This document shows, piece by piece, positions 1-63,535 of a stretch of DNA of 64,000 bases. The stretch is from a virus: the IMG/VR virus record IMGVR_UViG_3300047472_000449. One strand, given 5' to 3'. The notes beneath the pieces are model-generated. The model was not told where the DNA came from. It saw nothing but the letters and a program-made list of their open reading frames with translations, and made no database searches. Made by a program: the position numbers and the translations under genes. Position 1 is the first letter of the stretch; each line of letters begins with the position of its first letter.

Positions 1-118
1 CAAAACCATCAATAAGTGTCAATGTCAGTGACAGCGCTTGTCGCAGTAGAATTGATGGCTTGCGGGAGGGAGTGAGGTGACATACCAACTTAGCGGCCAC
101 CTTTTTAGGCATTTGCGG

Positions 119-361
119 TCAATCTTCGTCCCAGTGGCCGGTCTGACCGACGATGTGCCAATTTCCGCCGTTCGTATACGTCCTGCCGAAGGTGGAGACA
201 TTGAACTGAACACCCACATCGTCTACCAGCGAATAGAGCCCGATGTCTGCATTGATCAGCACTGCCTTGTATGGCGTGGCCAGCGTCAACTGATACTTCC
301 CTTTGGCAGAAGGTGGGTATTTATCGAATACAATTTCAATTTCTGCCAGTCGCAAGCTCAT
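119..361 (-). CDS. hypothetical protein (80 aa)
   Basis: ORF directly downstream of a perfect TTGACA-N17-TATAAT promoter. Confidence 0.65.
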   Translation of the reverse strand: MSLRLAEIEIVFDKYPPSAKGKYQLTLATPYKAVLINADIGLYSLVDDVGVQFNVSTFGRTYTNGGNWHIVGQTGHWDED

Positions 362-397
362 GCTGCTTTACCCTGCCGATCACCATTTAGTGTGATC

Positions 398-436
398 ATT
401 ATAGGGCGAGCAGGCAATATTGTCAATGTCATTTTA
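398..436 (-). promoter_or_regulatory. sigma70 promoter with degenerate palindromic operator
   Basis: TTGACA(426-421)-N17-TATAAT(403-398); GTCAAT GTC ATTTTA at 422-436. Confidence 0.8.
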
Positions 437-476
437 CATTGAGTGTTTTAAGGTTGTACCGGCTCACGCGGGCCAA

Positions 477-1070
477 TTATGCCGCAATGGGCTGGCGCAC
501 GGCGTCGGTGTGTTGAGTGACGTTGACGGCTTTCAGGATCTGATGCGGGAAAAAGGCCCGCATGCTGCCCAAGCCGACATGCTCGTAAAACCAAAGATGC
601 TTAACTTTTTCCATGCGCAGGCGCGCTTGGTTAAAGGGGTTGTGAAGCCACAGCCAAGGCTTGAGCAGGCAGGTACTGGTCTCGCTCTCCTGCACCAGAA
701 CCTCTGTCAGTGGGCGCCCGTAGTTATAGTGCATCTGCCCCAGATCAGCGATGCGCGCTTTGGCTTTGAGGTCGTGGTGATCGGCCATCCAGGCATCCAG
801 AATGCCCTGCCACTGCACCAGCAGCTGCGTAGTGACGTTGGTGGTGCTCAGCTCACTGAGGGCCACCACATGGCGTTCTTCGGAGTGGCCCCAGAGTTCC
901 AGAGTCAACAGGCGGCGCCGGTAACCCAGAACCTTCATTTTGTTGTAGACCACAGTATTTGCTTCAAACGGCAAATGCGGGCACTGGATGGCGATGGCCC
1001 GGTCAAGCAGGACGACCACTTGATGGCTGAGTTGCCAGTTACGCCAGATGCGTGTCAGGGATTTGAACAT
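477..1070 (-). CDS. hypothetical protein (197 aa)
   Basis: long ORF 10 nt downstream of the 1081 gene, operon-like. Confidence 0.7.
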   Translation of the reverse strand: MFKSLTRIWRNWQLSHQVVVLLDRAIAIQCPHLPFEANTVVYNKMKVLGYRRRLLTLELWGHSEERHVVALSELSTTNVTTQLLVQWQGILDAWMADHHDLKAKARIADLGQMHYNYGRPLTEVLVQESETSTCLLKPWLWLHNPFNQARLRMEKVKHLWFYEHVGLGSMRAFFPHQILKAVNVTQHTDAVRQPIAA

Positions 1071-1080
1071 CGTGTTGTCC

Positions 1081-1914
1081 TCAGGAATGACTGACAGGAA
1101 CTACGCTGGCGTTTTCATAGCGACTCGCCAGCGCCGTAGCTGCATTGAACCCGGCTACTACAAACACGGCCTCCGGCTCACCTTTCCGGCGAATCAGCAC
1201 CGCATGCGGCGCACGATGAGAATCCTCGATCCATTGCCCGCCGAACAAATCAGCGGCACGTACATCCCTGTCCTTGTTCACTACCAGCTCTAGGAATTTA
1301 ACGGCCATTTCAACAGGGCTAAGCTTGGAAAGGCTATCGCTATGCCCTTCTGGACGCACTGAGAGTGGTTCGGCCTGGGGGCTTTTCATCAGCGCCTGCT
1401 GATGACCAATAATGTAAGTGTTGATGGCAGCTTGCAGATCCTGATGCTCTGGCAGCAGGCTGTTCAGGACGCGAGAGAGAAGCTCTTGAAGATTCGGCAG
1501 CTCGTAGGCCAGCCTGTCGAGGCGCGGCAATGGCATACGATCAAAAAAATCACGCTGCTGCGCCTCAGTCGGTGGCTTGCCAAATGGCATTAGCTTGGGC
1601 GATGAGCGCATACAGTGATTGATGGCGGCGAAGTACGCATTGGCGAACTTAAACACGTCATCGTGCGAGCGATTTCCATGCAGGTGGTGCTCGACAAACT
1701 CACGGGGGCTCGGTAGAGCCGCAGTTTCGCCTTCAAGGATAGGGCGCATCGTTGATGCCTGCTGCTTGAACAGGTGTGCCATTATCCGGTGCGAATTAAT
1801 GTACGCCACAACCTCTTGCCGGTCTTTGAACTCTTGCATCAGCAGCTCTTCAAGGCTGGGCATTTTGCCCACAATTCCGTCAATTTTCGGCTTGTAAGTG
1901 TAATAGGCGTACAT
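1081..1914 (-). CDS. hypothetical protein, paralog family A
   Basis: start moved to MYAYYTY (GGAG RBS; matches MHPYYTH of paralog 7634); shared C-terminal motif HAVLIRRKGEPEAVFVVAGFNAA. Confidence 0.8.
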   Translation of the reverse strand: MYAYYTYKPKIDGIVGKMPSLEELLMQEFKDRQEVVAYINSHRIMAHLFKQQASTMRPILEGETAALPSPREFVEHHLHGNRSHDDVFKFANAYFAAINHCMRSSPKLMPFGKPPTEAQQRDFFDRMPLPRLDRLAYELPNLQELLSRVLNSLLPEHQDLQAAINTYIIGHQQALMKSPQAEPLSVRPEGHSDSLSKLSPVEMAVKFLELVVNKDRDVRAADLFGGQWIEDSHRAPHAVLIRRKGEPEAVFVVAGFNAATALASRYENASVVPVSHS

Positions 1915-2019
1915 CAATAGCTCCGACTGTGCGGCTTGTTCTGAGGGTTTCATTATACGCCACCCGGCTAAATTGTCAATATGAATTACCATGCGGTGGG
2001 GTGGGCGCCCTCCCCTTGC

Positions 2020-3200: not shown

Positions 3201-3443
3201 ATGAAATATTCCGTACTGGCTCTGACCCTGGCCCTGTCGATGTCCGCCTCTGCCCTCGCGCTGGCTGAAGAAGCCCCTATCGTCATCAGTGTGGCAGCGA
3301 ACGACGCCAAGCCCGCTGAGGTGGCCTCTCAGGCAACCAATGCGCCTGTTGTGAAGCAGATCACTGCGAAAGCCGAACATCGTTCGCTGTCCGGCGATGC
3401 GACCCGACCAAAAAATCTGAATTGGGATCTGCGCAATCGCTGA
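3201..3443 (+). CDS. secreted peptide 1 of LRNR-tail family (80 aa)
   Basis: GGAG RBS, Sec signal peptide (ALA|EE), ends ATRPKNLNWDLRNR. Confidence 0.85.
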   Translation: MKYSVLALTLALSMSASALALAEEAPIVISVAANDAKPAEVASQATNAPVVKQITAKAEHRSLSGDATRPKNLNWDLRNR

Positions 3444-7633: not shown

Positions 7634-8482
7634 TCACTGTTTGCTGGCGGGAATAATGATGGTGGTGGTGTCGCCTTCCAGGGTTGCTGCCAGATCAGCC
7701 GCTGCCTTGTAGCCAGTGGTGACATAAGCACGATCATCCTTACCTTCACGGCGCACCAGCACCACATGAGGCTCACTGTCGAACTGGTGTCGCAGGGCTA
7801 GACCAAACATGTCTGCGAATATGTCGGCTTTTGCCTCACCAAACTCATCTGCAAAAAACTGGAAAACCAACTCGCGAAAACTGGCGCCATTACTGAAGTC
7901 ACCGGTGAAATTGGGCTCCAGGGTAAATGGATCAAGGGACGGTGAGTCAGTCATGGTTTGAAAGTGGTTGGCAAAATAGTCGCTGACCGCTTGGTGGTTG
8001 GCTGTACTTTCGCCAGACCAGCGTTTTTGCAAAGCTACGGCAATGTCAAAAAGTGAAACCCGCGCCGCGAAACCAGTAACTGGGGGGTTGAAGCTGTAGT
8101 AATCCCGACGAGCATGCCCCGGTGGCCCAAAGGGTTCGGGCTCGGAAGCCATGGCTTTATCCAGCTGCTCAAAATACTGAGTGGTGTATTTGGCCGCATT
8201 GTTGAAGATGAACACGTCACCTTCGGCGTTCGCTTGAATGTAACCCTCGACCAGTTGGAAGGGCGAGAGGTTGCCGTTCTTCGCCAGCCAATTCCCGGCC
8301 CTGGGGCGCAGCATTTTTTCATCCACTTGTGGGTATCGAGCCGAAACACGGTGATCATCGATGTAATCACATACCTTTTGCTGGTCGCCTTCAAAGAACA
8401 GATTGAGCAGGTTTTCAAGACTTGGAACCGGGTCGCTGCCAAGAACCTTCACCATCGGTTGGTGAGTGTAATAAGGGTGCAT
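7634..8482 (-). CDS. hypothetical protein, paralog family A
   Basis: AAGGAG RBS before MHPYYTH; motifs PSLENLL, DPFTLEPN..SFRELV, HVVLVRREGKDDRAYVTTGYKAA. Confidence 0.8.
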   Translation of the reverse strand: MHPYYTHQPMVKVLGSDPVPSLENLLNLFFEGDQQKVCDYIDDHRVSARYPQVDEKMLRPRAGNWLAKNGNLSPFQLVEGYIQANAEGDVFIFNNAAKYTTQYFEQLDKAMASEPEPFGPPGHARRDYYSFNPPVTGFAARVSLFDIAVALQKRWSGESTANHQAVSDYFANHFQTMTDSPSLDPFTLEPNFTGDFSNGASFRELVFQFFADEFGEAKADIFADMFGLALRHQFDSEPHVVLVRREGKDDRAYVTTGYKAAADLAATLEGDTTTIIIPASKQ

Positions 8483-8519: not shown

Positions 8520-8558
8520 ATTATACCCACCAGCCACGTATTTGTCAATATGAATGAC
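8520..8558 (-). promoter_or_regulatory. sigma70 promoter + operator
   Basis: TTGACA-N17-TATAAT; GTCAAT ATG AATGAC at 8544-8558. Confidence 0.85.
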
Positions 8559-11433: not shown

Positions 11434-11871
11434 TTAGCGGTTGCGAAGATCAGCTTCCAGGTTTTTGGGCTTGGTCGCATCACTGGCGACTACGCCGCTG
11501 GCAGCATCGGTGGTAACTTTGCCGGACAGTGGGCGTGGAATGTCAGGGGTGCCAGGGGCTTTCACTTCGCCAGTCGGTGCCGGGCCGGTGGGAGTTGGCG
11601 CGGTTTTGCCGGATGCAGCGGCGGTGGCTGCGGACTTGGTTGGAGCAGCTTTCGCGGATGCGGCGGTTTTGACCGGTGCAGCTTTGGCGGTTGCGGCGGC
11701 TTTGGCTGGTGCAGCCTTGGTCGATGCGACTTTTTCGACCGGTGCAGCTTTGGCCGAAATAGCAGTTTCAACCGGTGCGACAGCGGTGGCTTTTTCTTGA
11801 GCCATGGCGTTCACCGACAGGCCGGACAGCGCTACGGCCATCGCGAGGATCAGGGAGTATCGTTGTTTCAT
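11434..11871 (-). CDS. secreted peptide 2 of LRNR-tail family (145 aa, Ala/Lys/Pro/Thr-rich linker)
   Basis: signal peptide AMA|QE; ends ATKPKNLEADLRNR. Confidence 0.85.
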   Translation of the reverse strand: MKQRYSLILAMAVALSGLSVNAMAQEKATAVAPVETAISAKAAPVEKVASTKAAPAKAAATAKAAPVKTAASAKAAPTKSAATAAASGKTAPTPTGPAPTGEVKAPGTPDIPRPLSGKVTTDAASGVVASDATKPKNLEADLRNR

Positions 11872-11956: not shown

Positions 11957-12175
11957 TTAACGGTTACGCAGTTCCCAGTCCAGGTTTTTCGGACGAGTCG
12001 AGCGAGGCGATTGCGATGGCGAGGTGCTGGTTGCTTTCGGGGTGGCATCAGTGGTCGCTTGCGACGCATCTTTTGCAGTTTGGACAGCGACCGGTTCTTT
12101 CGGTTGATCTGCGGCCACGGCGGCAACGGAGACAGCGGACAGCGACAGCGCCAGAACGAGTGCCAACTTTTTCAT
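11957..12175 (-). CDS. secreted peptide 3 of LRNR-tail family (72 aa)
   Basis: signal peptide; ends STRPKNLDWELRNR. Confidence 0.85.
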   Translation of the reverse strand: MKKLALVLALSLSAVSVAAVAADQPKEPVAVQTAKDASQATTDATPKATSTSPSQSPRSTRPKNLDWELRNR

Positions 12176-12216: not shown

Positions 12217-12255
12217 ATTATGATGCTTCTTTTACTATTTGTCAATAGCATTTAC
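12217..12255 (-). promoter_or_regulatory. sigma70 promoter + operator (peptide 3)
   Basis: TTGACA-N17-CATAAT; GTCAAT AGC ATTTAC at 12241-12255. Confidence 0.8.
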
Positions 12256-12312: not shown

Positions 12313-12471
12313 TTAGCGGTTACGCAGTTCCCAGTCCAGATTCGCCGGACGGGTCGCGGTGACCGAAGGGGATTTGGCGGTAACGCCAGCTTTCGGCTGA
12401 TCAGCGGCCATCGAGACAGCGGAAACGGCGGACAGCGACAGAGCCAGAACGAGTGCCAGAGTCGATTTCAT
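12313..12471 (-). CDS. secreted peptide 4 of LRNR-tail family (52 aa; absent from ORF track)
   Basis: manual translation MKSTLALVLALSLSAVSAVSMAADQPKAGVTAKSPSVTATRPANLDWELRNR; GGAG RBS; own promoter 12514-12542. Confidence 0.85.
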   Translation of the reverse strand: MKSTLALVLALSLSAVSAVSMAADQPKAGVTAKSPSVTATRPANLDWELRNR

Positions 12472-12615
12472 GTGAATCTCCATTGCGTGACAGGATGTTT
12501 GCTTTGATGGTTTATTATGGCGATTCTTTTACTAATTGTCAATCTTATTTACATTTGTTTTTTGAGACATTGGCCCGCCTCACTCACTGGTGAGGCAGGC
12601 CAAAGGCCGTGGGGT

Positions 12616-12774
12616 TTAGCGGTTACGCAGTTCCCAGTCCAGGTTCGACGGGCGGGTCGCGGTGACCGAAGGGGACTTGGCGGTAGCGGTGGCCGAGGTT
12701 TTCACAGCTTCACCTGCCATCGCAACGGCGGACAGGGACATTGCCACAACAACAGCCAGTACGGTACGTTTCAT
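12616..12774 (-). CDS. secreted peptide 5 of LRNR-tail family (52 aa; absent from ORF track)
   Basis: manual translation MKRTVLAVVVAMSLSAVAMAGEAVKTSATATAKSPSVTATRPSNLDWELRNR; GGAG RBS; own promoter 12806-12834. Confidence 0.85.
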   Translation of the reverse strand: MKRTVLAVVVAMSLSAVAMAGEAVKTSATATAKSPSVTATRPSNLDWELRNR

Positions 12775-12921
12775 GTGAAGCTCCATTTGCTTGGTTTGTG
12801 GGGTTATTATAAGTATCTATACCATGATTGTCAATCATATTTTCATTATTATTTGAATATTTATCTACCCGCCACTAAAGCAATCCACGGCCACACGTCC
12901 ACCCGACTCCCCCATTGATTG

Positions 12922-13781: not shown

Positions 13782-14543
13782 TCAGGCGGCGTCTGGCGTC
13801 CAGTTGACCGCCTTGTCGAAGTCCTCTTGACTCATTTGCACGCCGACCCGGCAAACGCGCAGAAAAGCGTTACGAGCTTCCTCGGCGGTGGCGTTCTCGA
13901 TCAAAGTTACGACGGTCTGCGCATTGCGAAAGGCATTGGTGCATTGGTCGTGAAGCTTGATGAACGCTTCGATTTCAGCGCTATCCGCCCCAGCCTTTTC
14001 CCACTCGTTCCAGCGCTGGCGCAGCAGTTGATTGATGGTGTGGTTGCCGCTGTCGCAAAAGGGCAGCAGTGACCAAGCTGGCAACCGAAAGCCGACATCG
14101 GCCTCTTCGGCAGGCACAAACATCATGCGCTGCTCCTTGCTGTCCAGCACCAAACGCTGACCGGCCAGCCATGTCGAGGATTCTTCGGTACTCATGCCTT
14201 CGAACAGCGGCAGACCCGCAAAGTCCCTTACCATCATCCAGGCCAGTGTTGCCATGCGGTTCTGCCCGTCCAGCAGCAGGCCCACAGCGCCACGATCACC
14301 CTCTTTAGGGCCTGTCAGCGGGCCGAGGCGTCCTTTCGAGACCTTGTTCAGATCCGCCTTGTTGCCCGGCTCCCACAGCACAAAGCCGCCGATAGGGAAA
14401 TTCGACAGAATTGAATCGCACAGACTTTCCACGTCGTCCTTGATCCAGACATAGGGCCGTTGCATGGCGGCAGGTTGCATGCGACCTGCCGCACAGTCTT
14501 CGATCATGCTGGACAGGTACGGCGTGCTCTGGCGAATTCGCAT
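13782..14543 (-). CDS. stand-alone DUF262 (GmrS/SspE N-terminal, ParB-like fold) domain protein
   Basis: QRPYVW, FPIGGFVLW and LLDGQNR motifs; no HNH C-terminal domain; exact start uncertain. Confidence 0.8.
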   Translation of the reverse strand: MRIRQSTPYLSSMIEDCAAGRMQPAAMQRPYVWIKDDVESLCDSILSNFPIGGFVLWEPGNKADLNKVSKGRLGPLTGPKEGDRGAVGLLLDGQNRMATLAWMMVRDFAGLPLFEGMSTEESSTWLAGQRLVLDSKEQRMMFVPAEEADVGFRLPAWSLLPFCDSGNHTINQLLRQRWNEWEKAGADSAEIEAFIKLHDQCTNAFRNAQTVVTLIENATAEEARNAFLRVCRVGVQMSQEDFDKAVNWTPDAA

Positions 14544-14584: not shown

Positions 14585-14623
14585 ATTATAGCCAGACTTA
14601 CCACCAAAGTCAATCACATTGAC
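14585..14623 (-). promoter_or_regulatory. sigma70 promoter + perfect operator
   Basis: TTGACT-N17-TATAAT; GTCAAT CAC ATTGAC at 14609-14623. Confidence 0.85.
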
Positions 14624-14667: not shown

Positions 14668-15462
14668 TTACTGGTCAGCTTCTTGCTGAAGCTGCTTGAG
14701 CCAAGTCCGAACGGCCTGTTCATCAATCGTGACGGTGAAACCCTGGTCACGTGGCCGTCCTTCGCGCTCGTTCCTGTCATTGATCGAGTCGATGGCTTCG
14801 AACACTCGGGCCAAATACACGTAGTCAAATTTAGGGTAATTTCGCAGGCTCTGGGCGATTTCGTCGCAGGTGTAGCCGCCTGACCAGCCCTCTTCCTCCA
14901 GCTTTCCGATCACCTCTTGTGTCTGCGCAACCGTCAGCTTTTCGAAGTAAGGAAAGGCATCAAAGTCTTCTTCGTGCTGGCCGTCATCACTGAGGATGGT
15001 GCCTTTGAGGTAAGGGCAGGTAATGGGCTCCGCCGCCACGTTTGCAAAAATGTGTTCTACTTCCGCCGCGTCGCCCACTGGCACCATTGTCCAGTAGGCA
15101 AATTCTTTACCGGCCACGTCTTTTACGACGTTGGGAATCTCGTTGTCCCGAGCGTAGTGCAATTCATCTTCAGCACTGTTTATTATAATGCCTGTGACTG
15201 GGTAATTGCTGCACAGGAAATTATCGCCATTGGATATGTCCAGGACGATTTTAATTTGGTCTGGCATTACCAGCTGTGGGGGTTTGTTGGCAACGACAGC
15301 CTGTGCGGTGTTGAAGTCAGCGGCGCCCACCAGTTTGGCGGTCAGCTCGTTGAGTTTGCGCGACTTGAGCGGCAAGCTCAGTTCTTCGCTCAGGACTTTA
15401 CCCAAGTGGTCGCGCAGGGCCAGCAGGTCGTTTGGGGTGTTGAGGACATTAATCAGGTTCAT
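14668..15462 (-). CDS. acidic hypothetical protein
   Basis: GGAG RBS before MNLINV; promoter/operator at 15646-15684. Confidence 0.7.
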   Translation of the reverse strand: MNLINVLNTPNDLLALRDHLGKVLSEELSLPLKSRKLNELTAKLVGAADFNTAQAVVANKPPQLVMPDQIKIVLDISNGDNFLCSNYPVTGIIINSAEDELHYARDNEIPNVVKDVAGKEFAYWTMVPVGDAAEVEHIFANVAAEPITCPYLKGTILSDDGQHEEDFDAFPYFEKLTVAQTQEVIGKLEEEGWSGGYTCDEIAQSLRNYPKFDYVYLARVFEAIDSINDRNEREGRPRDQGFTVTIDEQAVRTWLKQLQQEADQ

Positions 15463-15729
15463 GCAGCTCTCCAGTACACGCCGTTTCCGGTTCCGCTCGT
15501 TGCCGCCAGCATGATTGAAGAAGCGCATCATGAGGGTGAGGGTGTTGCCTGCGTACTGACCGTTCCCGAGAGGGTGAGCGGGGCCACTTCGCCAAGTGAA
15601 ACACGTCTTCTACAGTGCTTGTCTGCGAATCCGTTGTATGGCGCCATTATGGCGAGGTGACACATAATTGTCAATGTCATTTATTGCAATTCAAGACAGT
15701 GGGGCGCCGTTACTCCTGACTTGATTGCT

Positions 15730-16755: not shown

Positions 16756-17268
16756 TTAGCCGTGCGCCAGCATTCCGGGGGTGCTTTGGTCGATGCTCGG
16801 TTTGGTTTGAGCGTGTGCGGACTCGTAGGTGTCGCCAGCCTTGTGCCAATACCGATCAAACTTGGAGTACACCTGTTTCCCATACAGCAACCGGGTATAA
16901 ACACCGGTCGGGTACGCCACCCACTCTTGCGCTGGATAATTGCTGTGGTCGTCCTCAAGCGTCCATGCCTGATCCTGGGTCTTCCAAGTGAAGAACAGGG
17001 TCAGGGTGCCGGGTTTGACCTCAACGATCCGGTGCGCGGTACTGGCGCGACGTGGGATGAGCGACAGCAGGCCGTGCCGATTCAGTTTTTTACCCACACA
17101 CTCGGTATAACCGCCCCACAAGACAAGGCTGAGGTAATGAAACGGGTGCGTATGCTGAAACGGCGTAATGTCGGGGCGCTTGATGCGATGAAAGCGAACG
17201 TGCAGCCGCCTGAAGTTCAGGACGGTGTACCGCTCCAGATAACCCACGAGGTGTTTGTAGGCGCGCAT
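16756..17268 (-). CDS. cupin-like (HxHP) phage/plasmid protein
   Basis: FQHTHPFHYLSLVLWGGYTE ... HRI motif; promoter/operator at 17299-17337. Confidence 0.65.
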   Translation of the reverse strand: MRAYKHLVGYLERYTVLNFRRLHVRFHRIKRPDITPFQHTHPFHYLSLVLWGGYTECVGKKLNRHGLLSLIPRRASTAHRIVEVKPGTLTLFFTWKTQDQAWTLEDDHSNYPAQEWVAYPTGVYTRLLYGKQVYSKFDRYWHKAGDTYESAHAQTKPSIDQSTPGMLAHG

Positions 17269-17338
17269 AGTGGCTTCACGTCAATTTGTTTGACGCTTAT
17301 TATATAATCCACCCACATCTTTGTCAACCCAAATGACA

Positions 17339-36351: not shown

Positions 36352-36367
36352 CTTTTATTATTCGTTG

Positions 36368-48100: not shown

Positions 48101-48583
48101 TCAGTTGGTGGAGAGCAGGCCGAGACCTTTCATGACGTTCAGCACTTCGCTTTCCGTCCACTTCGGCACGATGTTGTTGCCGCACAGGTTCTGCCACTCA
48201 TCGGCGGTCATCTTCTCGACAATGGGCAGCCAGACCGAGCGGTCGTCTTCACCGCAATGGGTGTAGACAAAAACGCCGTCATCCCATTCCATCGGTGCAT
48301 CATTCACCGCGAAGGCGATGGTTTCCGCCAGAATGAACAGACCGCCGCTCATCCAATCACACGGGATATCAGCGTGCTTGGCGTCCCACGAATCTGCGGG
48401 AAGTTCGTTTTGGTGGCGCACCTCGCCTTTACGCTTTGCTTGCAGCGAGTGCGAGTTCTGGTAAATCCCCTCGGCAATTTTGGCTTCCCAGAGAAACATC
48501 TGACGGGCAATGAAACCAGCGGTAATCGGATCTGCCGAGGTGAAAGTGTTTTTTGGGGTGGCAGCGACGGCGGCTTGGGTCAT
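48101..48583 (-). CDS. hypothetical protein
   Basis: GGAG RBS; promoter/operator 48644-48682. Confidence 0.7.
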   Translation of the reverse strand: MTQAAVAATPKNTFTSADPITAGFIARQMFLWEAKIAEGIYQNSHSLQAKRKGEVRHQNELPADSWDAKHADIPCDWMSGGLFILAETIAFAVNDAPMEWDDGVFVYTHCGEDDRSVWLPIVEKMTADEWQNLCGNNIVPKWTESEVLNVMKGLGLLSTN

Positions 48584-48712
48584 GACAATCTCCAGCAATT
48601 GGCGAGAGAAACCGGATTGACCGGTTTCTGTTCCGAGAAGCATATAATACCCGAATAACGGCTATTTGTCAACAAAAATGACGCTTGCGCCATGGATATT
48701 ATCAATGAATCA

Positions 48713-49083: not shown

Positions 49084-49422
49084 TCAGGCAAAGCTGAGGT
49101 AGACCATTGTGGTGTCTTCGAAGACGGACTTCAGCATGTCGTTATAGATGCCTTCAGCCGTCTCGATAACGTCCAGTTGCATTTCACCGCCTTCAGGACG
49201 GTGAACGCGGCTGAAGGTCACGTCATACAGATCGGAATCGTTCAGGATGATCTCAACGCGGTTGATGTCGTTTTTAGCCGCCAGATCCGAAGGAAACTGA
49301 ATGCGCAGGCCCTTTTCGACGGCGATCAGTTGCGAGCCGGTGAACAGGCGCAGGACTTTAACGCCGCCCATTTGGGCTGCAATTTCGTTGGCGATCTGGG
49401 TGTTTTCGTTGGCTTGCGACAT
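49084..49422 (-). CDS. conserved phage/plasmid hypothetical protein
   Basis: IANEIAAQMGG ... DLYDVTF ... GIYNDML...FE..T motif. Confidence 0.8.
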   Translation of the reverse strand: MSQANENTQIANEIAAQMGGVKVLRLFTGSQLIAVEKGLRIQFPSDLAAKNDINRVEIILNDSDLYDVTFSRVHRPEGGEMQLDVIETAEGIYNDMLKSVFEDTTMVYLSFA

Positions 49423-49450: not shown

Positions 49451-49490
49451 ATTATAGGCAAGCGAGATCGCAATGTCAATAGTATTGACA
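49451..49490 (-). promoter_or_regulatory. sigma70 promoter + perfect operator
   Basis: TGTCAAT AGT ATTGACA; TTGACA-N17-TATAAT. Confidence 0.9.
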
Positions 49491-50540: not shown

Positions 50541-50723
50541 TTACCAGTAACGGATGTGCTCGCCGGTTTCATCGAGGACTTCGACGCGGCTCAGGCCCTT
50601 CTGGTCAGCAGCGTGCTCGGCGCGGTAAATCCATTCATCATCGCCCGACTGCAAAGCAGCGGCCACGCGCTCGGCTTCTTCCGGGGAGTACGACGAGGGA
50701 ACGGTGTTGATCAGCAGGCCCAT
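50541..50723 (-). CDS. small acidic protein (60 aa)
   Basis: promoter/operator 50754-50792. Confidence 0.7.
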   Translation of the reverse strand: MGLLINTVPSSYSPEEAERVAAALQSGDDEWIYRAEHAADQKGLSRVEVLDETGEHIRYW

Positions 50724-50831
50724 GATCTTTCTCGATGTCTTGAATGTGTGATGATTATATCAGGAGCCCGCTCAATTGTCAATACAGATGACTATTTATG
50801 CGGTTTTCGGCGATGATTTTCCTTCCTATCC

Positions 50832-52291: not shown

Positions 52292-52591
52292 TCAGGCCCT
52301 TCTCCACGATCTTGCAGCGCGAAGCACCTGCAATTGATCCGTATCGACCGATTGCTTGGCTTGACTGATGTCATAGGCGCTCTGCATGCCCATCCAGTCC
52401 TCCGCAGAGCCGCCCAGCACGTGAGCAAGGCGCACCGCCATCTCACTGGAGAGCGCCGCTTTTCCGCTGAGCAAGCGGCTTACGCTGGCGGGAGAGACAT
52501 TCAATGCAACGGCCAGTTGTTGAGCAGAAATATTCATCGGCTCCAGGAAACGGAGGCGCAAGATTCCACCCGGATGACGAGGGCTGATCAT
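52292..52591 (-). CDS. higA: HigA-family XRE-HTH antitoxin (orphan)
   Basis: HPGGIL...LEPMNISAQQLAVALNVSPASVSRLLSGKAALSSEMAVRL...W..MQSAYD. Confidence 0.8.
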   Translation of the reverse strand: MISPRHPGGILRLRFLEPMNISAQQLAVALNVSPASVSRLLSGKAALSSEMAVRLAHVLGGSAEDWMGMQSAYDISQAKQSVDTDQLQVLRAARSWRRA

Positions 52592-52609
52592 GAGAAAGTC
52601 CAGATAATT

Positions 52610-52789
52610 TTAGGGTTGACTGTCGATTTTGGCGACTTGAGAACGCGCCTTGGAGGCCTCAAAAGCATCGTTGAGATGCTTCCTGGTCGCGGCGCGATCA
52701 GACGCGCTGATCCGGATGCCGCCGACACCATTGCCGAGTTCCACCAGCGCCATAATGGCGGGCTGAATAACCTCTTTATGGTTGTCCAT
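52610..52789 (-). CDS. 59-aa hypothetical protein (absent from ORF track)
   Basis: manual translation MDNHKEVIQPAIMALVELGNG...; downstream of promoter 52830-52858. Confidence 0.55.
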   Translation of the reverse strand: MDNHKEVIQPAIMALVELGNGVGGIRISASDRAATRKHLNDAFEASKARSQVAKIDSQP

Positions 52790-52918
52790 GGCAGTATCCC
52801 TGAGAACATGATTCGATTAACAGATCATCATTATGATTGCGCATTGCGCAATTGTCAATATTTAATGATTATTATCTGTGTGCCGAACAAAGCTTTTGCT
52901 CTTCTCAAACAAAGCTTT

Positions 52919-53305
52919 TCAGGCAGCCATTGCGACAGGGAGGCTGAGTGGATCTTGAGTCCAGATGGCGTGACAATTGGCGCACAGCACCCGGCATTTG
53001 GCCAGTTCGGCGTTGATGATCGCCCACGGCCTTCTGAAGATCGACGCCATCTCGTAAGACTTGAGGGCAGGATCAATGTGATCGAACGTCAGCGCGCTGG
53101 CGTGCGCCTTGTAGCCGCAGCACTGGCAGCCCTTGTCGAGCTTGATCTGGCGCAGGTGCTCCCGACGCTCCTCGTAGACTTTCAGTTTTCCGAAGATTGT
53201 CCGGCACTTTTTCGTGCAGCAGGACTGATCGCTTCGCCGGGGCGTGAAGCCATTTCCGCATTGAATGCAGGCGACCTCACAGGCACCCTGCTCCGCAGCT
53301 GTCAT
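52919..53305 (-). CDS. HNH endonuclease-like protein
   Basis: CQCCG...TFDHIDP...KCRVLCANCH; extra N-terminal CxxC...CC..C. Confidence 0.8.
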   Translation of the reverse strand: MTAAEQGACEVACIQCGNGFTPRRSDQSCCTKKCRTIFGKLKVYEERREHLRQIKLDKGCQCCGYKAHASALTFDHIDPALKSYEMASIFRRPWAIINAELAKCRVLCANCHAIWTQDPLSLPVAMAA

Positions 53306-53820: not shown

Positions 53821-54147
53821 TTAGTTGCTGGTCGCCCGGCAGATCACATGCTTGCGGATCGATTCGGGCAGATCCAGCCAGCGGATCTTTTTGCCGGAGG
53901 CATCACGGTTCATGCTTGGGCACTCGCCCCACTGACTGAAGCCTTGCGGGTGCGAAGGGGATTCGCTCATGCACAGGTACTCAACAGCGCGATTACGGGC
54001 CAGTGCTTCGTTGTACAGCGAGCCACCGAAAAACACAGTGTAACGATCAACGGTTTTGCCGCCGTTGTCGTGAACCGACAGAATGTATTCAGGAGCCTGT
54101 TCCATCCAGCGTTGAGTGGCGCGGCGTGGGCGGTAGGTAGTGGACAT
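53821..54147 (-). CDS. conserved phage-type hypothetical protein
   Basis: DNGGKTVDRYTV ... HPQGFSQ ... GKKI.W.DLP motif. Confidence 0.8.
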   Translation of the reverse strand: MSTTYRPRRATQRWMEQAPEYILSVHDNGGKTVDRYTVFFGGSLYNEALARNRAVEYLCMSESPSHPQGFSQWGECPSMNRDASGKKIRWLDLPESIRKHVICRATSN

Positions 54148-54181: not shown

Positions 54182-54220
54182 ATTATATCGAAGCCCGCCA
54201 TCAATGTCAATGGCATTGAC
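54182..54220 (-). promoter_or_regulatory. sigma70 promoter + perfect operator
   Basis: GTCAAT GGC ATTGAC at 54206-54220; TTGACA-N17-TATAAT. Confidence 0.9.
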
Positions 54221-54234: not shown

Positions 54235-54918
54235 TTAACTTGGCTGGAGTTCTATGCGCTCTACCTTGTGGAAAAAGGTTGGCAGTGCCCGCCAGTTAAC
54301 ATTTAGCACGTGTTTCAGGAAAGGTTCGTTATGGCTGAACTGCATGGCCATGCCGGTAAAATAAGCCGAGCAGCGGTGTGTGCTACCCAGCGGGGTGGTG
54401 TAATCGAAGCTCGACCCCTGTGCCCAATCATCAATGGGATTAAACGCCTCAACAATCCCGGCGTTATTCAGGTAATCCACGGTCTGTTGCATCTGTGTGC
54501 GCTTGCCGATGTTGTTCAGGCGCCACAAATGGGTGACACGATCCACGTAGCGCACGTAGGACAGGTGCAAGAGCGACCACTGGCAACCGGACACAGGAAA
54601 GGATTCCGACACAAAATCTTTGCAGAGAATACCAATGTCGTCCCGGTCACGAATGTCACTACGGATATGAGCCAATCCACCCATGTTGCTTAGATGGTCA
54701 TTGGCAAATTCCTGGATGTTTTTGCATCCGTAGGATTCTCGCGGCTGAGTGCCCATGACAAGGTGCTCAAGGTGGCTTTTGACCAAGTTTTCGACCATTT
54801 TTGAGTAATGCTCGATGTCCGAAGGGTGCGTGATCGCACGCTTGGTCACCACACCAATAACGCCATGGTGTTCCACCGGCTCGGGCGCAGAACTTTTTGC
54901 AGTCAAAAGCTTGATCAT
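54235..54918 (-). CDS. hypothetical protein (227 aa)
   Basis: own promoter/operator. Confidence 0.7.
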   Translation of the reverse strand: MIKLLTAKSSAPEPVEHHGVIGVVTKRAITHPSDIEHYSKMVENLVKSHLEHLVMGTQPRESYGCKNIQEFANDHLSNMGGLAHIRSDIRDRDDIGILCKDFVSESFPVSGCQWSLLHLSYVRYVDRVTHLWRLNNIGKRTQMQQTVDYLNNAGIVEAFNPIDDWAQGSSFDYTTPLGSTHRCSAYFTGMAMQFSHNEPFLKHVLNVNWRALPTFFHKVERIELQPS

Positions 54919-54959: not shown

Positions 54960-54998
54960 AGTTTAGCGATCCCAACAGCAATTGTCAATGGTATTGAC
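54960..54998 (-). promoter_or_regulatory. sigma70 promoter + perfect operator
   Basis: GTCAAT GGT ATTGAC at 54984-54998; TTGACA-N17-TAAACT. Confidence 0.85.
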
Positions 54999-55560: not shown

Positions 55561-55788
55561 TTACGTCGCTGGTCTGTCAGTCAATATCAGTTGGGCGCTC
55601 GCAATCTTGACCAAGCCTTCTGGCCTCTGACAAAGACTGTCGAAGTCACTGCGCTTGGACGACTTAGGGAGACTCTCAGGAGCCCAGCCGCGCCTGCCCC
55701 ATCGCAGTTCAATCGGCTTTTTTTGCAGGCGCTTCAGGATTGCTTTTTCCCCCTCGGTAAGCGGAGCAGCGTCGCCATTGCTGGTCAT
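55561..55788 (-). CDS. small hypothetical protein
   Basis: promoter/operator 55882-55920. Confidence 0.55.
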   Translation of the reverse strand: MTSNGDAAPLTEGEKAILKRLQKKPIELRWGRRGWAPESLPKSSKRSDFDSLCQRPEGLVKIASAQLILTDRPAT

Positions 55789-55945
55789 GATTTTTTTCCT
55801 ATATCGGATTCTTCAGGGGTGAGCCTGATCGATACTGATGGTAGAGAGGGCCTTATTGCCCCATACTTATTTTTCAAATTAAGTATAGCGGCAGCACAGG
55901 CCATTGTCAATATCATTTACATCTGCGACCGCTTCACTCAACAGA

Positions 55946-56344: not shown

Positions 56345-56608
56345 TTAGGCTTCTTCATCATCAATGAGGCCGTGGCGCACGAAGATTTCGCGAGCCTCGG
56401 GGATGTCGTGCAGGCAATTGCCCTGGGGGTCGCCGCGCTGGAAATACAGCTCGATCAACTCACAGAGGTGAAACGTGGCCTCTTTGGTGGTGGGCCGAGA
56501 GAGCATCTTGTCTGCGATGCTCTCCAGCATCTCACCCGAATCGTGGGGCTCACCGACTGCCAAGGCGCGGAGCGCCCGGTAATCGGCCAGAGCCTGTGGA
56601 TGATTCAT
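56345..56608 (-). CDS. hypothetical protein
   Basis: ATGA coupling to upstream gene. Confidence 0.65.
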   Translation of the reverse strand: MNHPQALADYRALRALAVGEPHDSGEMLESIADKMLSRPTTKEATFHLCELIELYFQRGDPQGNCLHDIPEAREIFVRHGLIDDEEA

Positions 56609-57324
56609 TGCGTCGCCTGTGCGCGAGCCAGGGCATTGAGACAGTGAAGACAAGTCACGTCCTTGGGGTTGATCGTGGTTTTGCGCATGAAGCCGCAGAG
56701 CGCTCCGCTTAGGCCGTCTTTGGCGTACGTGGCCTTTACGTGACCCGGCATATCTTTCTCGGTGCTGATCTCGAAAAGGTGAACCTTGGTTGCACGCTTG
56801 CGAGGCTTTTGGGCTTCAGGCTTTTTGACTTCTGGCTTTTTCGGCGGTGTGTAGATGAAATCGAAGCGGAAGATCTCGAAACCACTGGAGTGGTTGCAGC
56901 AATCGACGATCTTGACCAGCTCCAGATTTTCATCCCGGAAGTACGCTGCCAGAAACTTTTCGATCAGGTGCGGTCTGCCGTGACGCATGCCGCCCGATCC
57001 GATAGGCAGTTGCTCATTGAAGCAGGCGTCGAAGTGATCGCGATCCCAGCCGCCCATGCGATCTGAATAGGCTGTGTGGAATTGCTTGCCCTCCTCCAGC
57101 TTAATGGAGAATGGCTTGGTTTGGCCCCGGTACTTACCGTTGATCCAGCGCACGTAGTCGCTGAAGCTGTAGGGGTAATCGCGCTTGGTGCGCTCAATCT
57201 TGTTGCCCTCAACATCGCGATGTTCAGAGCCAAACCGGCTGCTAAAACCACCGTCATCACCGCCGAAGAAGATATCTCCGTCCACACCAATGTCATTGCC
57301 ATAGTAAATTCGATGGTTGTTCAT
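56605..57324 (-). CDS. phage-type hypothetical protein with C-terminal Cys motif
   Basis: YPYSFSDYV; LCG...VTCLHC; promoter/operator 57357-57395. Confidence 0.75.
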   Translation of the reverse strand: MNNHRIYYGNDIGVDGDIFFGGDDGGFSSRFGSEHRDVEGNKIERTKRDYPYSFSDYVRWINGKYRGQTKPFSIKLEEGKQFHTAYSDRMGGWDRDHFDACFNEQLPIGSGGMRHGRPHLIEKFLAAYFRDENLELVKIVDCCNHSSGFEIFRFDFIYTPPKKPEVKKPEAQKPRKRATKVHLFEISTEKDMPGHVKATYAKDGLSGALCGFMRKTTINPKDVTCLHCLNALARAQATQ

Positions 57325-57356: not shown

Positions 57357-57457
57357 ATTATAGGCAGGAGTTACGCAAATGTCAACCATAATGACAGCCT
57401 GTTTGTGCTGACTTTATTGTTTTTTACATTGACATTTCTGTGATTCTTGGTTAAAAT
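57357..57457. promoter_or_regulatory. divergent sigma70 promoters
   Basis: minus: TTGACA-N17-TATAAT with GTCAAC CAT AATGAC; plus: TTGACA(57429)-N17-TAAAAT. Confidence 0.8.
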
Positions 57458-57500: not shown

Positions 57501-57938
57501 ATGACCACTCAAGCCGAACTGAACTTTGCTCTTCAATCCTCGGAGCATGGCTTCGATGATTACGATGTGGTCGGTCACACCACCCTGCGCCGTGTGTGCG
57601 TGCCGCAAGGCATTCGTAAGGGCGATATCTTCAACGTCTATTTCGGCATCAGCAGCAAGGGTGGCGCTAAGTGGCTGGGCAGCCTGGAAGCGTCGTTGAA
57701 CGCCTGGATTGCTGAAAACATAGGCACCGTGGGTGGCCACTACGTCCTCAACGAGCACACCCTCTGCTACTCCCAAGTTGGGACGAGCTTCTACGGTGTG
57801 TTGGCAGGCAAGCCTCAGCGTGGTGGCCACGACTGGAAAAACGGCCCTATCTCCGTGGTCAGCACTGACACGCTGCGCCCGGCTACCCTGGCTGACTTCG
57901 ATTTCTACCGCGTGTGCCCTAAAGGCCACATTGCCTAA
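57501..57938 (+). CDS. hypothetical protein
   Basis: first gene of plus-strand operon. Confidence 0.7.
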   Translation: MTTQAELNFALQSSEHGFDDYDVVGHTTLRRVCVPQGIRKGDIFNVYFGISSKGGAKWLGSLEASLNAWIAENIGTVGGHYVLNEHTLCYSQVGTSFYGVLAGKPQRGGHDWKNGPISVVSTDTLRPATLADFDFYRVCPKGHIA

Positions 57939-60125: not shown

Positions 60126-60725
60126 TTACTGCCCCATTTCCAGCGGGCGGGTCAGGTCTTCAACCATTATCTCCCTGTCTGCGTCATTGCTGATCAGTGT
60201 GTAACGAGGGTACTTATGATTGGTTCCGACCGCGATGGCATCATGCATTAGATAGCCCAGGACAACGTTCATTTGGGCGGTATCGGTGGCATCAAAACCA
60301 GTTTCCTCAATCAATTTACCTACCGCTGGGTTAATCTTGTCGCCTACGATCTGGAAAATCGGGTAGTACTTTCGACCCTTGTAGGTATAAGCTAGGATCT
60401 TGCCAGCAGCCGCCTTCTTGCTCAACGCCTGCTTGGTGATGCCGAGCAGATTGCAAACGGTTTTGGCATCAAAAACAGTGTAGTTATCCCTGATGCGACC
60501 GAACTGCTGCTCTCTGCTTTTGGCGAAAGCTATTGCATTGCGCTCTTGAATACTCGGCATTTTGACGGGATTGAATAGCGTGATCAGTTGAGCAAATTTT
60601 TGCGGCTCAAAATCTTCCATGGCCTTACGCACGACGGCAAGGGGCAGTGTTTCAAGCACCTCTTCCATGCGTGCGGCAAGCTGGGTAGCCACTTCTTTTT
60701 TTGGGTTGTTGAGGATTATTGTCAT
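60126..60725 (-). CDS. HTH protein resembling Xre/MbcA/ParS-type antitoxins of RES toxins (orphan)
   Basis: VCNLLGITKQALSKKAAAGKILA....GRKYYPIFQ motif; no RES gene adjacent. Confidence 0.55.
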   Translation of the reverse strand: MTIILNNPKKEVATQLAARMEEVLETLPLAVVRKAMEDFEPQKFAQLITLFNPVKMPSIQERNAIAFAKSREQQFGRIRDNYTVFDAKTVCNLLGITKQALSKKAAAGKILAYTYKGRKYYPIFQIVGDKINPAVGKLIEETGFDATDTAQMNVVLGYLMHDAIAVGTNHKYPRYTLISNDADREIMVEDLTRPLEMGQ

Positions 60726-60785
60726 GGTGGCCACTCTGGCGGTGTTTTGTAGCAATGGATCAATAGTACTCTACCGCCGAGATCG

Positions 60786-60817
60786 TGTCAACCTGTCAAC
60801 CTGTCAACTTGTCAACC
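60786..60817. repeat. four tandem octamers TGTCAAC(C/T)
   Basis: 60786, 60794, 60802, 60810; the first supplies the -35 of TTGACA-N17-TACTAT. Confidence 0.85.
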
Positions 60818-61414: not shown

Positions 61415-61885
61415 TCATACCTTGGCGTGCCGGGCCTCGATGGCTTTCTCAAATGCCTCAAACGCCTCTTTGCGGGAGGTGAGGCCTTTATCAATCATCT
61501 CGATGTCGGCATTGAAGATGACGAACCACTCGCCGTTGCAGTTGGCGTCAATGATGCCGCCGAGGAACGGGTCTGGATTGGTGGCAAGATTGGTGCCTGG
61601 GCTTGTCCAGCCATACGGGATAACGAAACTGTCATCGGCCACCACGGCGCTCAGCGCGGCATCGAAAGGCAGCTTCAGTTCCTCGATCAGATGAACAGCT
61701 TCCATGAAGATATATTCCTCCTCGCAGCTGCACTCGAACTCGATGTAATCCTTGTATTCCATGTGCTCGACGCCTTCTGCCAAGTTGCGATTGACTTGGA
61801 ACAGGGCGTCCGCGCTGACGCTGCGCGCAGCTTTTTTGATCGCTTTGATCTTCTGTGCCCAGGTCGGCTCTAGGGTGAATGCCAT
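61415..61885 (-). CDS. acidic hypothetical protein
   Basis: own promoter/operator. Confidence 0.75.
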   Translation of the reverse strand: MAFTLEPTWAQKIKAIKKAARSVSADALFQVNRNLAEGVEHMEYKDYIEFECSCEEEYIFMEAVHLIEELKLPFDAALSAVVADDSFVIPYGWTSPGTNLATNPDPFLGGIIDANCNGEWFVIFNADIEMIDKGLTSRKEAFEAFEKAIEARHAKV

Positions 61886-61929: not shown

Positions 61930-61975
61930 ATTATAGCCAGCACGCCCACCACTGTCAATACAATTGACAGTGGTG
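61930..61975 (-). promoter_or_regulatory. sigma70 promoter + operator within 13-bp perfect inverted repeat
   Basis: CACCACTGTCAAT ACA ATTGACAGTGGTG at 61947-61975; TTGACA-N17-TATAAT. Confidence 0.9.
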
Positions 61976-62008
61976 TAGGACGAAACGGCATCTCGACCTT
62001 CGGTTACT

Positions 62009-62320
62009 TCACGAAGATGTCACGCCTGCCGCCTTGCAAGCTTTTTCCCAGCAACGCTGTGACATGGCACTTTTCCCAGGGTGAAGGCTTTCGGTTGTCC
62101 ATTCGCCGCTTTGGGTGTCCATTGTGGCCTCAGTGCTCAGCCATGCTGGTACGCCTGAGGAGCAGGATGGATGGATAAAACCGCCCTGCTTGATCAGATC
62201 GACTGTTTCACTGAGGGTGTGCGTCCTGTCCTGCCAGCGATAACCTCGCTCAGCGGCATCGCCCGAGGCGGCGCTTTCTTCAGTCACGATCTCATAAGTT
62301 TTGGACAGTAGTAGCGGCAC
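62009..62320 (-). CDS. conserved phage-type hypothetical protein
   Basis: TYEIVTEESAASGDAAERG motif. Confidence 0.75.
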   Translation of the reverse strand: MPLLLSKTYEIVTEESAASGDAAERGYRWQDRTHTLSETVDLIKQGGFIHPSCSSGVPAWLSTEATMDTQSGEWTTESLHPGKSAMSQRCWEKACKAAGVTSS

Positions 62321-62374
62321 AGTCGAATTCCTTGGGTTTAGGGGCGGAGCGCCCTGTCCTGTCGTGTTGAGCTG

Positions 62375-62620
62375 TTACTTGAGAGCCATCAGCTTGGCCA
62401 ACAGATCTTCGTGGTAGCTGGCCATGGTGATTTTTTCGGCTTCGCGACCGGGAATGGTGGCCTTAACGCCGTCTGTAAGCGTAAACGGTGCAGTGAAAAA
62501 CTCAACGCGAGCCGCCACACACATTTCCCGTTCAGCGATTGCCGCAGCCAGATCAGTGACTTCAAGAGTATTGCCAAACAGATCAGTGACGCTCAATTGC
62601 GGTTGGTTGCTGGTGGTCAT
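62375..62620 (-). CDS. hypothetical protein
   Basis: AAAGG RBS. Confidence 0.65.
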   Translation of the reverse strand: MTTSNQPQLSVTDLFGNTLEVTDLAAAIAEREMCVAARVEFFTAPFTLTDGVKATIPGREAEKITMASYHEDLLAKLMALK

Positions 62621-62854
62621 CGCTTTTTCCTTTAACGGGTCATCCAGGACTGGAGAATATACACGGAAATCAAAAAATTCTTAGATCCGGTCAGCTGGCT
62701 TCTTGTGGCTTTGAGCCTTGCGGGCGCTGTTCTGGGAGAGCTGGGCAATGCATGCAAAACATGGTTTCTGATACGGCGAATAGCCAGGATTACGGCAGAT
62801 GTGCAGCTCAGCTTCGTTTTTCATTACCTGTTTCCCTGTAGCGCAGGTGGTGTT

Positions 62855-63022
62855 TTAGTTGCCGTGCTCAGCAATCATCATCGCCTTGAAATCCTCGGCC
62901 TCTTTTTTGGAGGCAAAGTGATAAATCACGGCATCTTCGTTTGGATCAGAGGCGGTGTCCTCGACAATCCAGGGCTTTTTGCGGCTGTGGTTTTTGCGCA
63001 GATCGAAGCGTTCAGTTGCCAT
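62855..63022 (-). CDS. 55-aa hypothetical protein (absent from ORF track)
   Basis: manual translation MATERFDLRKNHSRKKPWIVEDT... Confidence 0.5.
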   Translation of the reverse strand: MATERFDLRKNHSRKKPWIVEDTASDPNEDAVIYHFASKKEAEDFKAMMIAEHGN

Positions 63023-63058
63023 GGCAAGATCCTTGTTTGGAGGGTGTGTGGAGCTGAA

Positions 63059-63460
63059 TTAGACGCTGATGCCACGGGCCTTGAGGCTGTCCAGTGTCGG
63101 ATGGTAGTCGGCCTGAAAGATCTCGCCGCCGTCGCTTTCGATCACGTTCACGTGGCCTGCCTCGACATTGATCATCAGGTCGTAGGAGAAGCGTTCGCCG
63201 GGGTTATTGATCTCACGCACCTTGCCGTTCCAGTCCACGAAATAGCCTTGGCCCTGATAGGCGCCAGCAGCACGGCATTTGTTCCAGTCGTCGGCGGTCA
63301 GTACGAAATTGCGCGTCGGTGTCCAGTTCGGACTGCGCAACAGAGTGATCACTTGGGCGGCGGCTTCCGAGGTGCTGAACGGGCCGAAGTTTTCACTGTC
63401 ACTGATGACGGAGGTGCCTTGAACGGACAAATTGCTGAAGCTGCGAAATGCATGGTTCAT
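63059..63460 (-). CDS. hypothetical protein
   Basis: promoter/operator 63493-63531 (GTCAAT CAC ATTGTC). Confidence 0.7.
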   Translation of the reverse strand: MNHAFRSFSNLSVQGTSVISDSENFGPFSTSEAAAQVITLLRSPNWTPTRNFVLTADDWNKCRAAGAYQGQGYFVDWNGKVREINNPGERFSYDLMINVEAGHVNVIESDGGEIFQADYHPTLDSLKARGISV

Positions 63461-63535
63461 GACGACAATTCCAATCAGTGACTTGAGGGTTCAGTATACC
63501 CATCAAGTCACCGACTGTCAATCACATTGTCAGAA

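Follow-up and report, generated by a model that had tools for sequence, protein, structure and literature searches.

A palindrome sharing the -35 hexamer of consensus-grade promoters on a megaplasmid-like replicon, a candidate operator for replicon-wide control

The window analysed here is a stretch of 64,000 nucleotides catalogued as virus record IMGVR_UViG_3300047472_000449 of IMG/VR. It has 108 called genes, 87 of them on the minus strand, and no Rfam families or tRNAs were found in it. Its 22 terminator-like hairpins compare with 22.2 expected, and in view of this lack of enrichment many transcription units probably read through into the next. Dozens of the genes are preceded by promoters close to the sigma-70 consensus, and in most of these promoters the -35 hexamer is one arm of a short palindrome, GTCAWT-N3-ATTGAC, that may be the operator of a repressor acting across the replicon from which the window derives.

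Promoters were sought with a -35 hexamer matching at least five of six consensus positions, a total match of at least 10/12 and a spacer of 16-18 bp. The scan predicted 48 promoters (38 minus-strand, 10 plus-strand). All are intergenic and have short leaders, the predicted start site being a median of 32 nt from the start codon that follows on that strand. The -35 hexamer is a perfect TTGACA in 44 of the 48. Sites within one mismatch of TTGACA-N17-TATAAT number 36 against 0.11 expected, and 15 are perfect, which bears out the description of near-perfect promoters before genes in the initial annotation, a reading made from the sequence alone. This puts a consensus-grade promoter every 1.3-1.8 kb, with the common dyad in roughly two thirds of them. 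From -3 to +12 the promoters of the putative regulon are strongly depleted in G, with C at -3 and -1, A or C at +1, T at +2 and an A/C-rich stretch thereafter.

The palindrome GTCAATNNNATTGAC was counted with up to 2 mismatches in the window and in shuffled sequence. There were 38 matches in the window, against a mean of 2.69 and a maximum of 6 in the shuffles, confirming the enrichment first reported. With few exceptions the good sites are oriented towards the minus strand, and their alignment, read on the transcribed strand, is (T)GTCAWT-N3-ATTGACA(W)T-N17-TATAAT. What is observed directly is this motif together with its fixed position, its enrichment, and the quality and density of the promoters. 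The sites are listed below with promoter matches out of twelve, the sequence of the outer (upstream) arm with its mismatches, and the gene that follows.

18-32, minus strand: palindrome, 1 mismatch, at the window edge; -10 beyond the window start
398-436, minus strand: promoter 12/12, outer arm TAAAAT (3 mismatches), site 422 of the initial annotation; gene 119-361
1952-1989, minus strand: promoter 12/12, 16-bp spacer, arm GTAATT (1 mismatch); gene 1081-1914
8520-8558, minus strand: promoter 12/12, arm GTCATT; gene 7634-8482
12217-12255, minus strand: promoter 11/12, arm GTAAAT (1 mismatch); secreted-peptide gene 11957-12175
12514-12552, minus strand: promoter 11/12, arm GTAAAT (1 mismatch); secreted-peptide gene 12313-12471
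12806-12844, minus strand: promoter 12/12, arm GAAAAT (2 mismatches); secreted-peptide gene 12616-12774
14585-14623, minus strand: promoter 11/12, perfect palindrome; gene 13782-14543 (GmrSD_N/DUF262)
15646-15684, minus strand: promoter 11/12, arm ATAAAT (2 mismatches); gene 14668-15462, 177-nt leader
17280-17294, minus strand: second palindrome (1 mismatch), which forms no part of a -35; located on the predicted start site and 5' untranslated region of the 17327 promoter
17299-17337, minus strand: promoter 12/12, arm GTCATT; gene 16756-17268
18688-18726, minus strand: promoter 10/12, arm GTCATT; gene 18222-18638
19423-19461, plus strand: promoter 12/12, arm GTCATT; gene 19498-19743
20817-20854, minus strand: promoter 11/12, 16-bp spacer, arm GTCAAA (1 mismatch); gene 20573-20776
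25778-25816, plus strand: promoter 11/12, perfect palindrome; gene 25846-26007
28211-28249, minus strand: promoter 10/12, arm GTCATT; gene 27767-28132
28975-29013, minus strand: promoter 12/12, perfect palindrome; gene 28319-28891
29339-29377, minus strand: promoter 12/12, perfect palindrome; gene 29056-29304
30261-30299, plus strand: promoter 11/12, arm GTTTTT (2 mismatches); gene 30329-30547
32001-32039, minus strand: promoter 11/12, arm GTCAGT (1 mismatch); gene 31649-31924
32861-32899, minus strand: promoter 11/12, arm GTCATT; gene 32046-32825
33794-33832, minus strand: promoter 11/12, arm GTCAAT; gene 33244-33759
42315-42353, minus strand: promoter 12/12, arm GTCATT; lipoprotein-like gene 41727-42272
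43028-43066, minus strand: promoter 11/12, arm GTCACT (1 mismatch); gene 42440-42985, paralogue of 41727-42272
44353-44391, minus strand: promoter 12/12, arm GTAATT (1 mismatch); gene 44018-44305
44816-44854, minus strand: promoter 12/12, arm GTCATT; gene 44451-44780
46008-46046, minus strand: promoter 11/12, arm GTCATT; gene 45608-45970
46345-46383, minus strand: promoter 10/12, perfect palindrome; gene 46058-46300
48644-48682, minus strand: promoter 11/12, arm GTCATT; gene 48101-48583
49451-49489, minus strand: promoter 12/12, perfect palindrome; gene 49084-49422
50754-50792, minus strand: promoter 12/12, arm GTCATC (1 mismatch); gene 50541-50723
54182-54220, minus strand: promoter 12/12, perfect palindrome; gene 53821-54147
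54960-54998, minus strand: promoter 10/12, perfect palindrome; gene 54235-54918
55882-55920, minus strand: promoter 11/12, arm GTAAAT (1 mismatch); gene 55561-55788
57357-57395, minus strand: promoter 12/12, arm GTCATT; gene 56605-57324; back to back with the 57419 promoter
57419-57457, plus strand: promoter 11/12, arm GTTTTT (2 mismatches); gene 57501-57938
61930-61968, minus strand: promoter 12/12, perfect palindrome; gene 61415-61885
63493-63531, minus strand: promoter 11/12, arm GACAAT (1 mismatch); gene 63059-63460

Of the 34 sites given in the initial annotation, 33 are among the matches with up to 2 mismatches, the exception being site 422, and nine palindromes rather than eight are perfect in both six-base arms (14609, 25778, 28999, 29363, 46369, 49475, 54206, 54984 and 61954). 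Two further sites were absent from that list, a promoter site with 2 mismatches at 20840 and the palindrome at 17280; the matches at 18877, 28427 and 40247 are no better than chance. The palindrome at 17280-17294 is the sole convincing one away from a -35, a single case in which both arms were scored with a matrix for the outer arm only, and its position over the start of the 17327 transcript would be that of an auxiliary operator. A different arrangement is found at 18849-18895, where a plus-strand promoter (TTGACA-N17-TACAAT) upstream of a NinX-like gene has an inverted TGTCAA inside its spacer; two TTGACA boxes thus face each other 11 bp apart, unlike the dyad of the regulon.

The outer arm GTCAWT, with at most one mismatch, stands exactly at -45 to -40 in 31 of the 48 promoters and is exact in 21; at a chance rate of 0.8% per hexamer the binomial P is ~1e-52. 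It is the exact inverted repeat of ATTGAC at -36 to -31 across an invariant 3-bp gap, so that many core promoters bear a dyad at one fixed place, as is typical of global regulons. The half-site centres are 9 bp apart, the usual distance for helix-turn-helix (HTH) dimers, and the centre of the dyad is at about -38. The information content from -45 to -40 is 0.81, 1.02, 0.44, 0.91, 0.41 and 1.04 bits in turn; it is near zero at -39 and -38, 0.22 bit at -37, and weak (up to 0.36 bit) upstream of -46 as far as -75. Extension of the dyad to A-48 and T-28 was rejected because these bases have similar frequencies in promoters that lack the arm. In pairwise comparisons of the 35 sites whose arm has up to 2 mismatches, identity is 0.30 across the spacer and 0.26 from -75 to -49, compared with 0.25 expected from composition. 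The motif is shared while spacers and flanks are random, and therefore its positions are kept by selection, not by copying.

The outer arm is not the -35 box of a divergent promoter. The initial annotation had seen no -10 behind it at two sites, and this holds for all 31: on the other strand, 16-18 bp away, the best match is 4/6 (at six sites, about 2 being expected) and none has 5 or 6.

The replicon that carries this array is predicted to be an uncultivated megaplasmid-like element of ~1.1 Mb, a distant relative of the pMPPla107 megaplasmid family (PMC6482414). The grounds for this prediction are fourfold. A phage origin was rejected after megablast and tblastn searches against phages, which gave no match. 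The open reading frame (ORF) of 1056 amino acids at 38241-41411 matches Pseudomonas megaplasmids in a protein search, the best match being the 972-kb pMPPla107 at 45% identity. P0007, a window protein of 199 amino acids, is listed as encoded by a 1,136,521-bp contig, a size that rivals or exceeds that of pMPPla107. Copies of the region 27000-37000 that are 90-99% identical occur in rhizosphere, soil and coded-organism runs (contigs of four runs), with patchy coverage and sequences too similar for operator conservation to be gauged. Some contigs from a metatranscriptome library also align to this region; such RNA contigs can neither show transcription starts nor exclude DNA carry-over. Close plasmid relatives were not found by megablast against the plasmid collection, nor related loci in viral contigs, and relatives of window proteins exist at 62-86% protein identity, for example for the gene at 28319-28891.

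In the genomes searched, the site is rare. The composite site (up to 2 mismatches) occurs 30 times in the window versus at most 2 times per genome in 401 sampled genomes of one gammaproteobacterial order, and the exact bare palindrome 17 times in 64 kb versus 3-5 times per ~7-Mb genome in five large genomes, which is near the control counts. A chromosomal box in excess was found neither in the genomes of that order nor in the five large ones, the host of the element being unidentified; to judge from these counts, the site does not look like a host regulator box. Motif scans of viral, genome and metagenome contigs gave, among the matches listed, scattered single matches in unrelated organisms and no second replicon with multiple sites.

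On balance we lean towards a repressor, dimeric and encoded by the element, for which the dyad GTCAWT-N3-ATTGAC, centred at about -38, is the operator. Protein binding, the dimer, its origin in the element and repression are what we infer, because of the dyad, the need to restrain dozens of consensus promoters, and the precedents of KorA/KorB, ArdK and Reg576. The proximal arm would be the -35 hexamer together with the A at -36, giving the half-site AWTGAC. A repressor dimer encoded elsewhere on the ~1.1-Mb element would bind the dyad, cover about -46 to -30 and compete with region 4 of sigma-70 for the same bases, shutting off ~30 near-consensus promoters in the window and probably many more on the replicon. 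When the repressor is absent, as in a newly entered cell or upon an inactivating signal, all of these promoters would fire near-maximally. By sequence they are intrinsically strong, as expected of the targets of a global repressor, and a set of consensus-grade promoters of which about two thirds have one dyad points to replicon-wide on/off control by one protein. The single dimeric repressor of the initial annotation stands in part: a dyad-symmetric binder over the -35 is the most economical reading, while the protein itself was not identified in the window. That one -35-reading regulator holds well over a hundred megaplasmid promoters of perfect or near-perfect sigma-70 type under one switch is a more tentative proposition, which we regard as possible but doubtful.

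Several observations weigh against a dedicated repressor. Among the 105 window proteins scanned with Pfam, PHROGs and NCBIfam no binding protein was identified, the sole clear HTH being a HigA antitoxin; genes that stand first behind perfect operators and plus-strand genes encode no DNA-binding domain (Pfam, E up to 1), and the small basic proteins of the window show nothing HTH-like by eye. The A at -36 is present in 26 of the 31 promoters with the outer arm and in 14 of the 17 without it, and so is no evidence for a dyad; it may belong to these promoters in general or be a proximal half-site that has been retained. Degenerate arms such as GTAAAT, GTAATT and GTTTTT stay A/T-rich and retain GT, and could also suit contact with RNA polymerase or a host factor. 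With the exception of 17280, every occurrence of the palindrome coincides with a -35, which leaves room for a role intrinsic to the promoter. The closest plasmid read, pMPPla107, lacks the system: its 972 kb contain 5 weak palindrome matches and 11 near-consensus promoters, none of them perfect. The density of near-consensus promoters, which for its part speaks for a need of control, is ~50 times higher in the window, and by this comparison the system is taken to belong to the present lineage and not to be a trait of the pMPPla107 family.

The HigA-family antitoxin (52292-52591; 99 amino acids, Xre-type HTH, TIGR02607, E 8e-21) was considered as the global regulator and rejected because it has a palindrome of its own in its own promoter. 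That promoter scores 11/12, is without the outer arm, and contains the different palindrome ATTGCGCAAT(GCGCAAT) in its spacer; HigA is predicted to be a local toxin-antitoxin regulator. An ORF of 59 amino acids (52610-52789) precedes the higA gene behind the common promoter (52292-52868), with an HNH-like gene (52919-53305) further upstream, and 52292-52868 is probably a separately controlled toxin-antitoxin pair.

Among the alternatives to a repressor, the one that survives best, although we consider it unlikely, is that GTCAWT is a promoter-intrinsic element read by RNA polymerase (the C-terminal domain of the alpha subunit, alpha-CTD, or sigma) or by an abundant host factor, that it raises promoter strength, and that the look of a dyad is incidental. 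This would account for a motif nearly confined to promoters at one constant distance, for perfect arms being commonest among the 12/12 promoters, and for the A/T-rich degenerate arms that keep GT; A-36 and W-29/T-28 extend the -35 with or without the arm and could be element-specific features of an extended promoter. It would also make the exact reverse complement of ATTGAC a coincidence without reason. A 12/12 core leaves little to stimulate, 17 promoters of equal core quality manage without the arm, and the 401 sampled genomes have no excess of the composite site. UP elements, the sites of the alpha-CTD, are A/T-rich from -40 to -60, and the proximal UP consensus of E. coli is an A-tract, AAAAAARNR at -46 to -38. 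The conservation of G-45 and C-43 and the limitation of the signal to -45 to -40 do not fit this E. coli consensus. Nor does the arm resemble a second site for sigma. Region 4 most needs T-35 and G-33, and the mirrors of these two bases are the weakest positions of the arm (0.41 and 0.44 bits), whereas those mirroring A-36, T-34, A-32 and C-31 are well conserved (0.8-1.0 bits); the arm being weakest where sigma is most demanding, its conservation is unlike that of a sigma region 4 site. An exact inverted copy at a fixed 3-bp gap, with no -10, no fit to an UP element, and random spacers and flanks, agrees with the initial annotation that the outer arm goes beyond ordinary promoter function.

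It is improbable that the dyad is bound by an activating, anti-silencing or promoter-marking dimer of the element, one that would recruit or license RNA polymerase in the manner of class II activators. The symmetry and the fixed place near -40 do resemble class II geometry, in which the dyads of CRP and FNR are centred at -41.5 and replace a poor -35. Here the centre is at -38 rather than -41.5, and activation should be unneeded with a perfect TTGACA in 44 of the 48 promoters and near-ideal -10 and spacer. The proximal half-site comprises the very bases that sigma region 4 reads, so that joint occupancy would be unlikely.

It is equally improbable that the master regulator is a 199-amino-acid protein of the window, reading GGTTGACA as direct repeats and the palindromes as inverted repeats. 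Two features are concerned:

60129-60725, minus strand: 199-amino-acid protein; excisionase-type winged HTH below threshold; weak candidate for reading sites that contain TTGACA
60763-60816, minus strand: its promoter, TTGACA-N17-TACTAT, the -35 being the last of four tandem GTTGACA with an 8-bp period; without the inverted arm

The case for this protein begins with its own promoter, in which the last of four GGTTGACA repeats contains the -35, and ArdK is known to read both direct and inverted repeats (PMC9723621). Its HTH_17 match is below threshold (E 0.014); its AlphaFold model (predicted local distance difference test, pLDDT, 50) has a beta-alpha-alpha-beta-beta element and is too poor for a fold search; its atlas neighbours have HTH_17, Rv2175c_wHTH or Xre-MbcA-ParS domains. 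The only homologue in the plasmid database, from Pseudomonas avellanae p1NCPPB4222, has 40% identity, and upstream of it (L211:3815-3870) three to four copies of GGTTGACA are again found. Since the array is kept upstream of homologues this divergent, the family (199-207 amino acids) very probably binds the GGTTGACA unit, with the -35 hexamer inside it, to regulate itself. The case against begins on the same plasmid, which has both homologue and array and yet no palindrome regulon, its 4 matches all being intragenic; the two that were read lie in paralogous DUF932 coding sequence without a -10. The gene of the homologue adjoins a RES toxin gene, and the family looks like an autoregulated antitoxin-type protein. 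Moreover, the repeat has GG before TTGACA where the regulon sites have nA, and direct spacing at 8 bp is unlike the geometry of the palindrome.

Finally, that the arm is a functionless passenger on a duplicated promoter cassette is hardly credible: sites 12241, 12538 and 12830 do precede tandem paralogous peptide genes, and 42339 and 43052 lipoprotein-like paralogues, but spacer and upstream identities are no better than random (0.30 and 0.26, 0.25 being expected), in contrast to 0.8-1.0 bits at the motif positions, which refutes the idea for most sites.

Recognisable products of the window are GmrSD_N/DUF262, LemA, DUF3016, a GNAT acetyltransferase, an HD/SpoT-like hydrolase, HNH endonucleases, NinX, a secreted-peptide family and paralogous lipoprotein-like proteins; the function of the genes under the shared site is mostly not recognisable from sequence. 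The secreted-peptide family comprises five proteins of 52-145 amino acids with predicted signal peptides (3201-3443, 11434-11871, 11957-12175, 12313-12471 and 12616-12774), low-complexity linkers and the common C-terminus ...NL(D/E/N)W(E/D)LRNR; three of the five have their own near-consensus promoter with the arm GTAAAT or GAAAAT. The lipoprotein-like genes at 41727-42272 and 42440-42985 are highly similar tandem paralogues of 181 amino acids, each with one promoter of the regulon. Outside the regulon promoters, a plus-strand ORF of 815 amino acids (22157-24604) encodes a flavin adenine dinucleotide (FAD)-linked oxidase (FAD_binding_4, ALO) fused to a methyltransferase domain. Establishment regulons typically control anti-restriction, SSB and PsiB genes, and no ArdA-, ArdC-, SSB- or PsiB-type family is among the first 25 families listed in each of the Pfam, PHROGs and NCBIfam summaries for the 105 proteins. 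The suggestion that the sites control entry, host-takeover or anti-defence genes accordingly found no support among the families listed, and to take the operator as marking anti-defence genes is speculation; it does not yet identify any.

Giant plasmids impose large fitness costs on their hosts, and the control of their many unknown genes is little understood. If one regulator does hold well over a hundred promoters of the element, a mirrored -35 placed three bases upstream would be enough to bring any consensus promoter into the regulon, the regulon would be the largest known on a mobile element to use a single operator, and giant plasmids would have a general means to silence their cargo and then release all of it at once. 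If confirmed, the operator would delimit a set of genes under joint control on an uncultivated element of 1.1 Mb, offer a handle for fishing out the regulator, and provide a source of very strong, presumably tightly repressible promoters. A literature search by motif string returned only noise. What is new is the sequence of the operator, the way it is built from a mirrored -35, the near-perfect quality of the promoters and the scale of ~31 sites in 64 kb.

Regulons under a single repressor are already well known from plasmids and prophages, and in kind the one proposed here is not new. The IncP-1 plasmid RK2 has about a dozen OB sites and seven OA sites. The plasmid global repressors named in the initial annotation are apt analogues (PMC11790492, PMC9723621, PMC6294495). 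In RK2/RP4, as here, short palindromes are found at or next to the core elements of numerous strong promoters; there they serve the coordinated silencing of much of the replicon by KorA and KorB. KorB represses from OB a few bp upstream of the -35, and OA, the site of KorA, overlaps the -10 (PMC11790492). The window differs in having ~31 sites in 64 kb, an unrelated operator sequence and a proximal half-site that is the -35 itself; it showed no protein of the KorA or KorB type, and nothing in it suggests a cytidine triphosphate-dependent sliding clamp such as KorB. ArdK of the KorA family (IncW R388 and IncN pKM101) likewise acts on several promoters through a common repeat in the promoter region, controlling five genes/promoters in R388 (PMC9723621). 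Its native sites are direct repeats at stability and establishment genes, in contrast to an inverted dyad on a scale about ten times larger. Reg576, the ribbon-helix-helix protein of Bacillus pumilus plasmid p576, represses four promoters that are strong like those of the window, and transient derepression after transfer has been proposed (PMC6294495). Its operator is a dual TTATCCC heptamer bound by two dimers in a Gram-positive host, and its gene set includes ardC, whereas no anti-restriction gene was recognised here. Among phages, P1 has dispersed repressor sites in its C1 operators. The ~30 stoperators of the mycobacteriophage L5 type resemble the present sites in being spread by the tens over a genome under one repressor, and one L5 repressor site overlaps the -35 of an early promoter (PMC9283540). 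The sites of L5 and P1 are asymmetric and monomer-bound, and most stoperators block elongation inside transcription units, whereas the sites described here are symmetric and lie on the promoters themselves.

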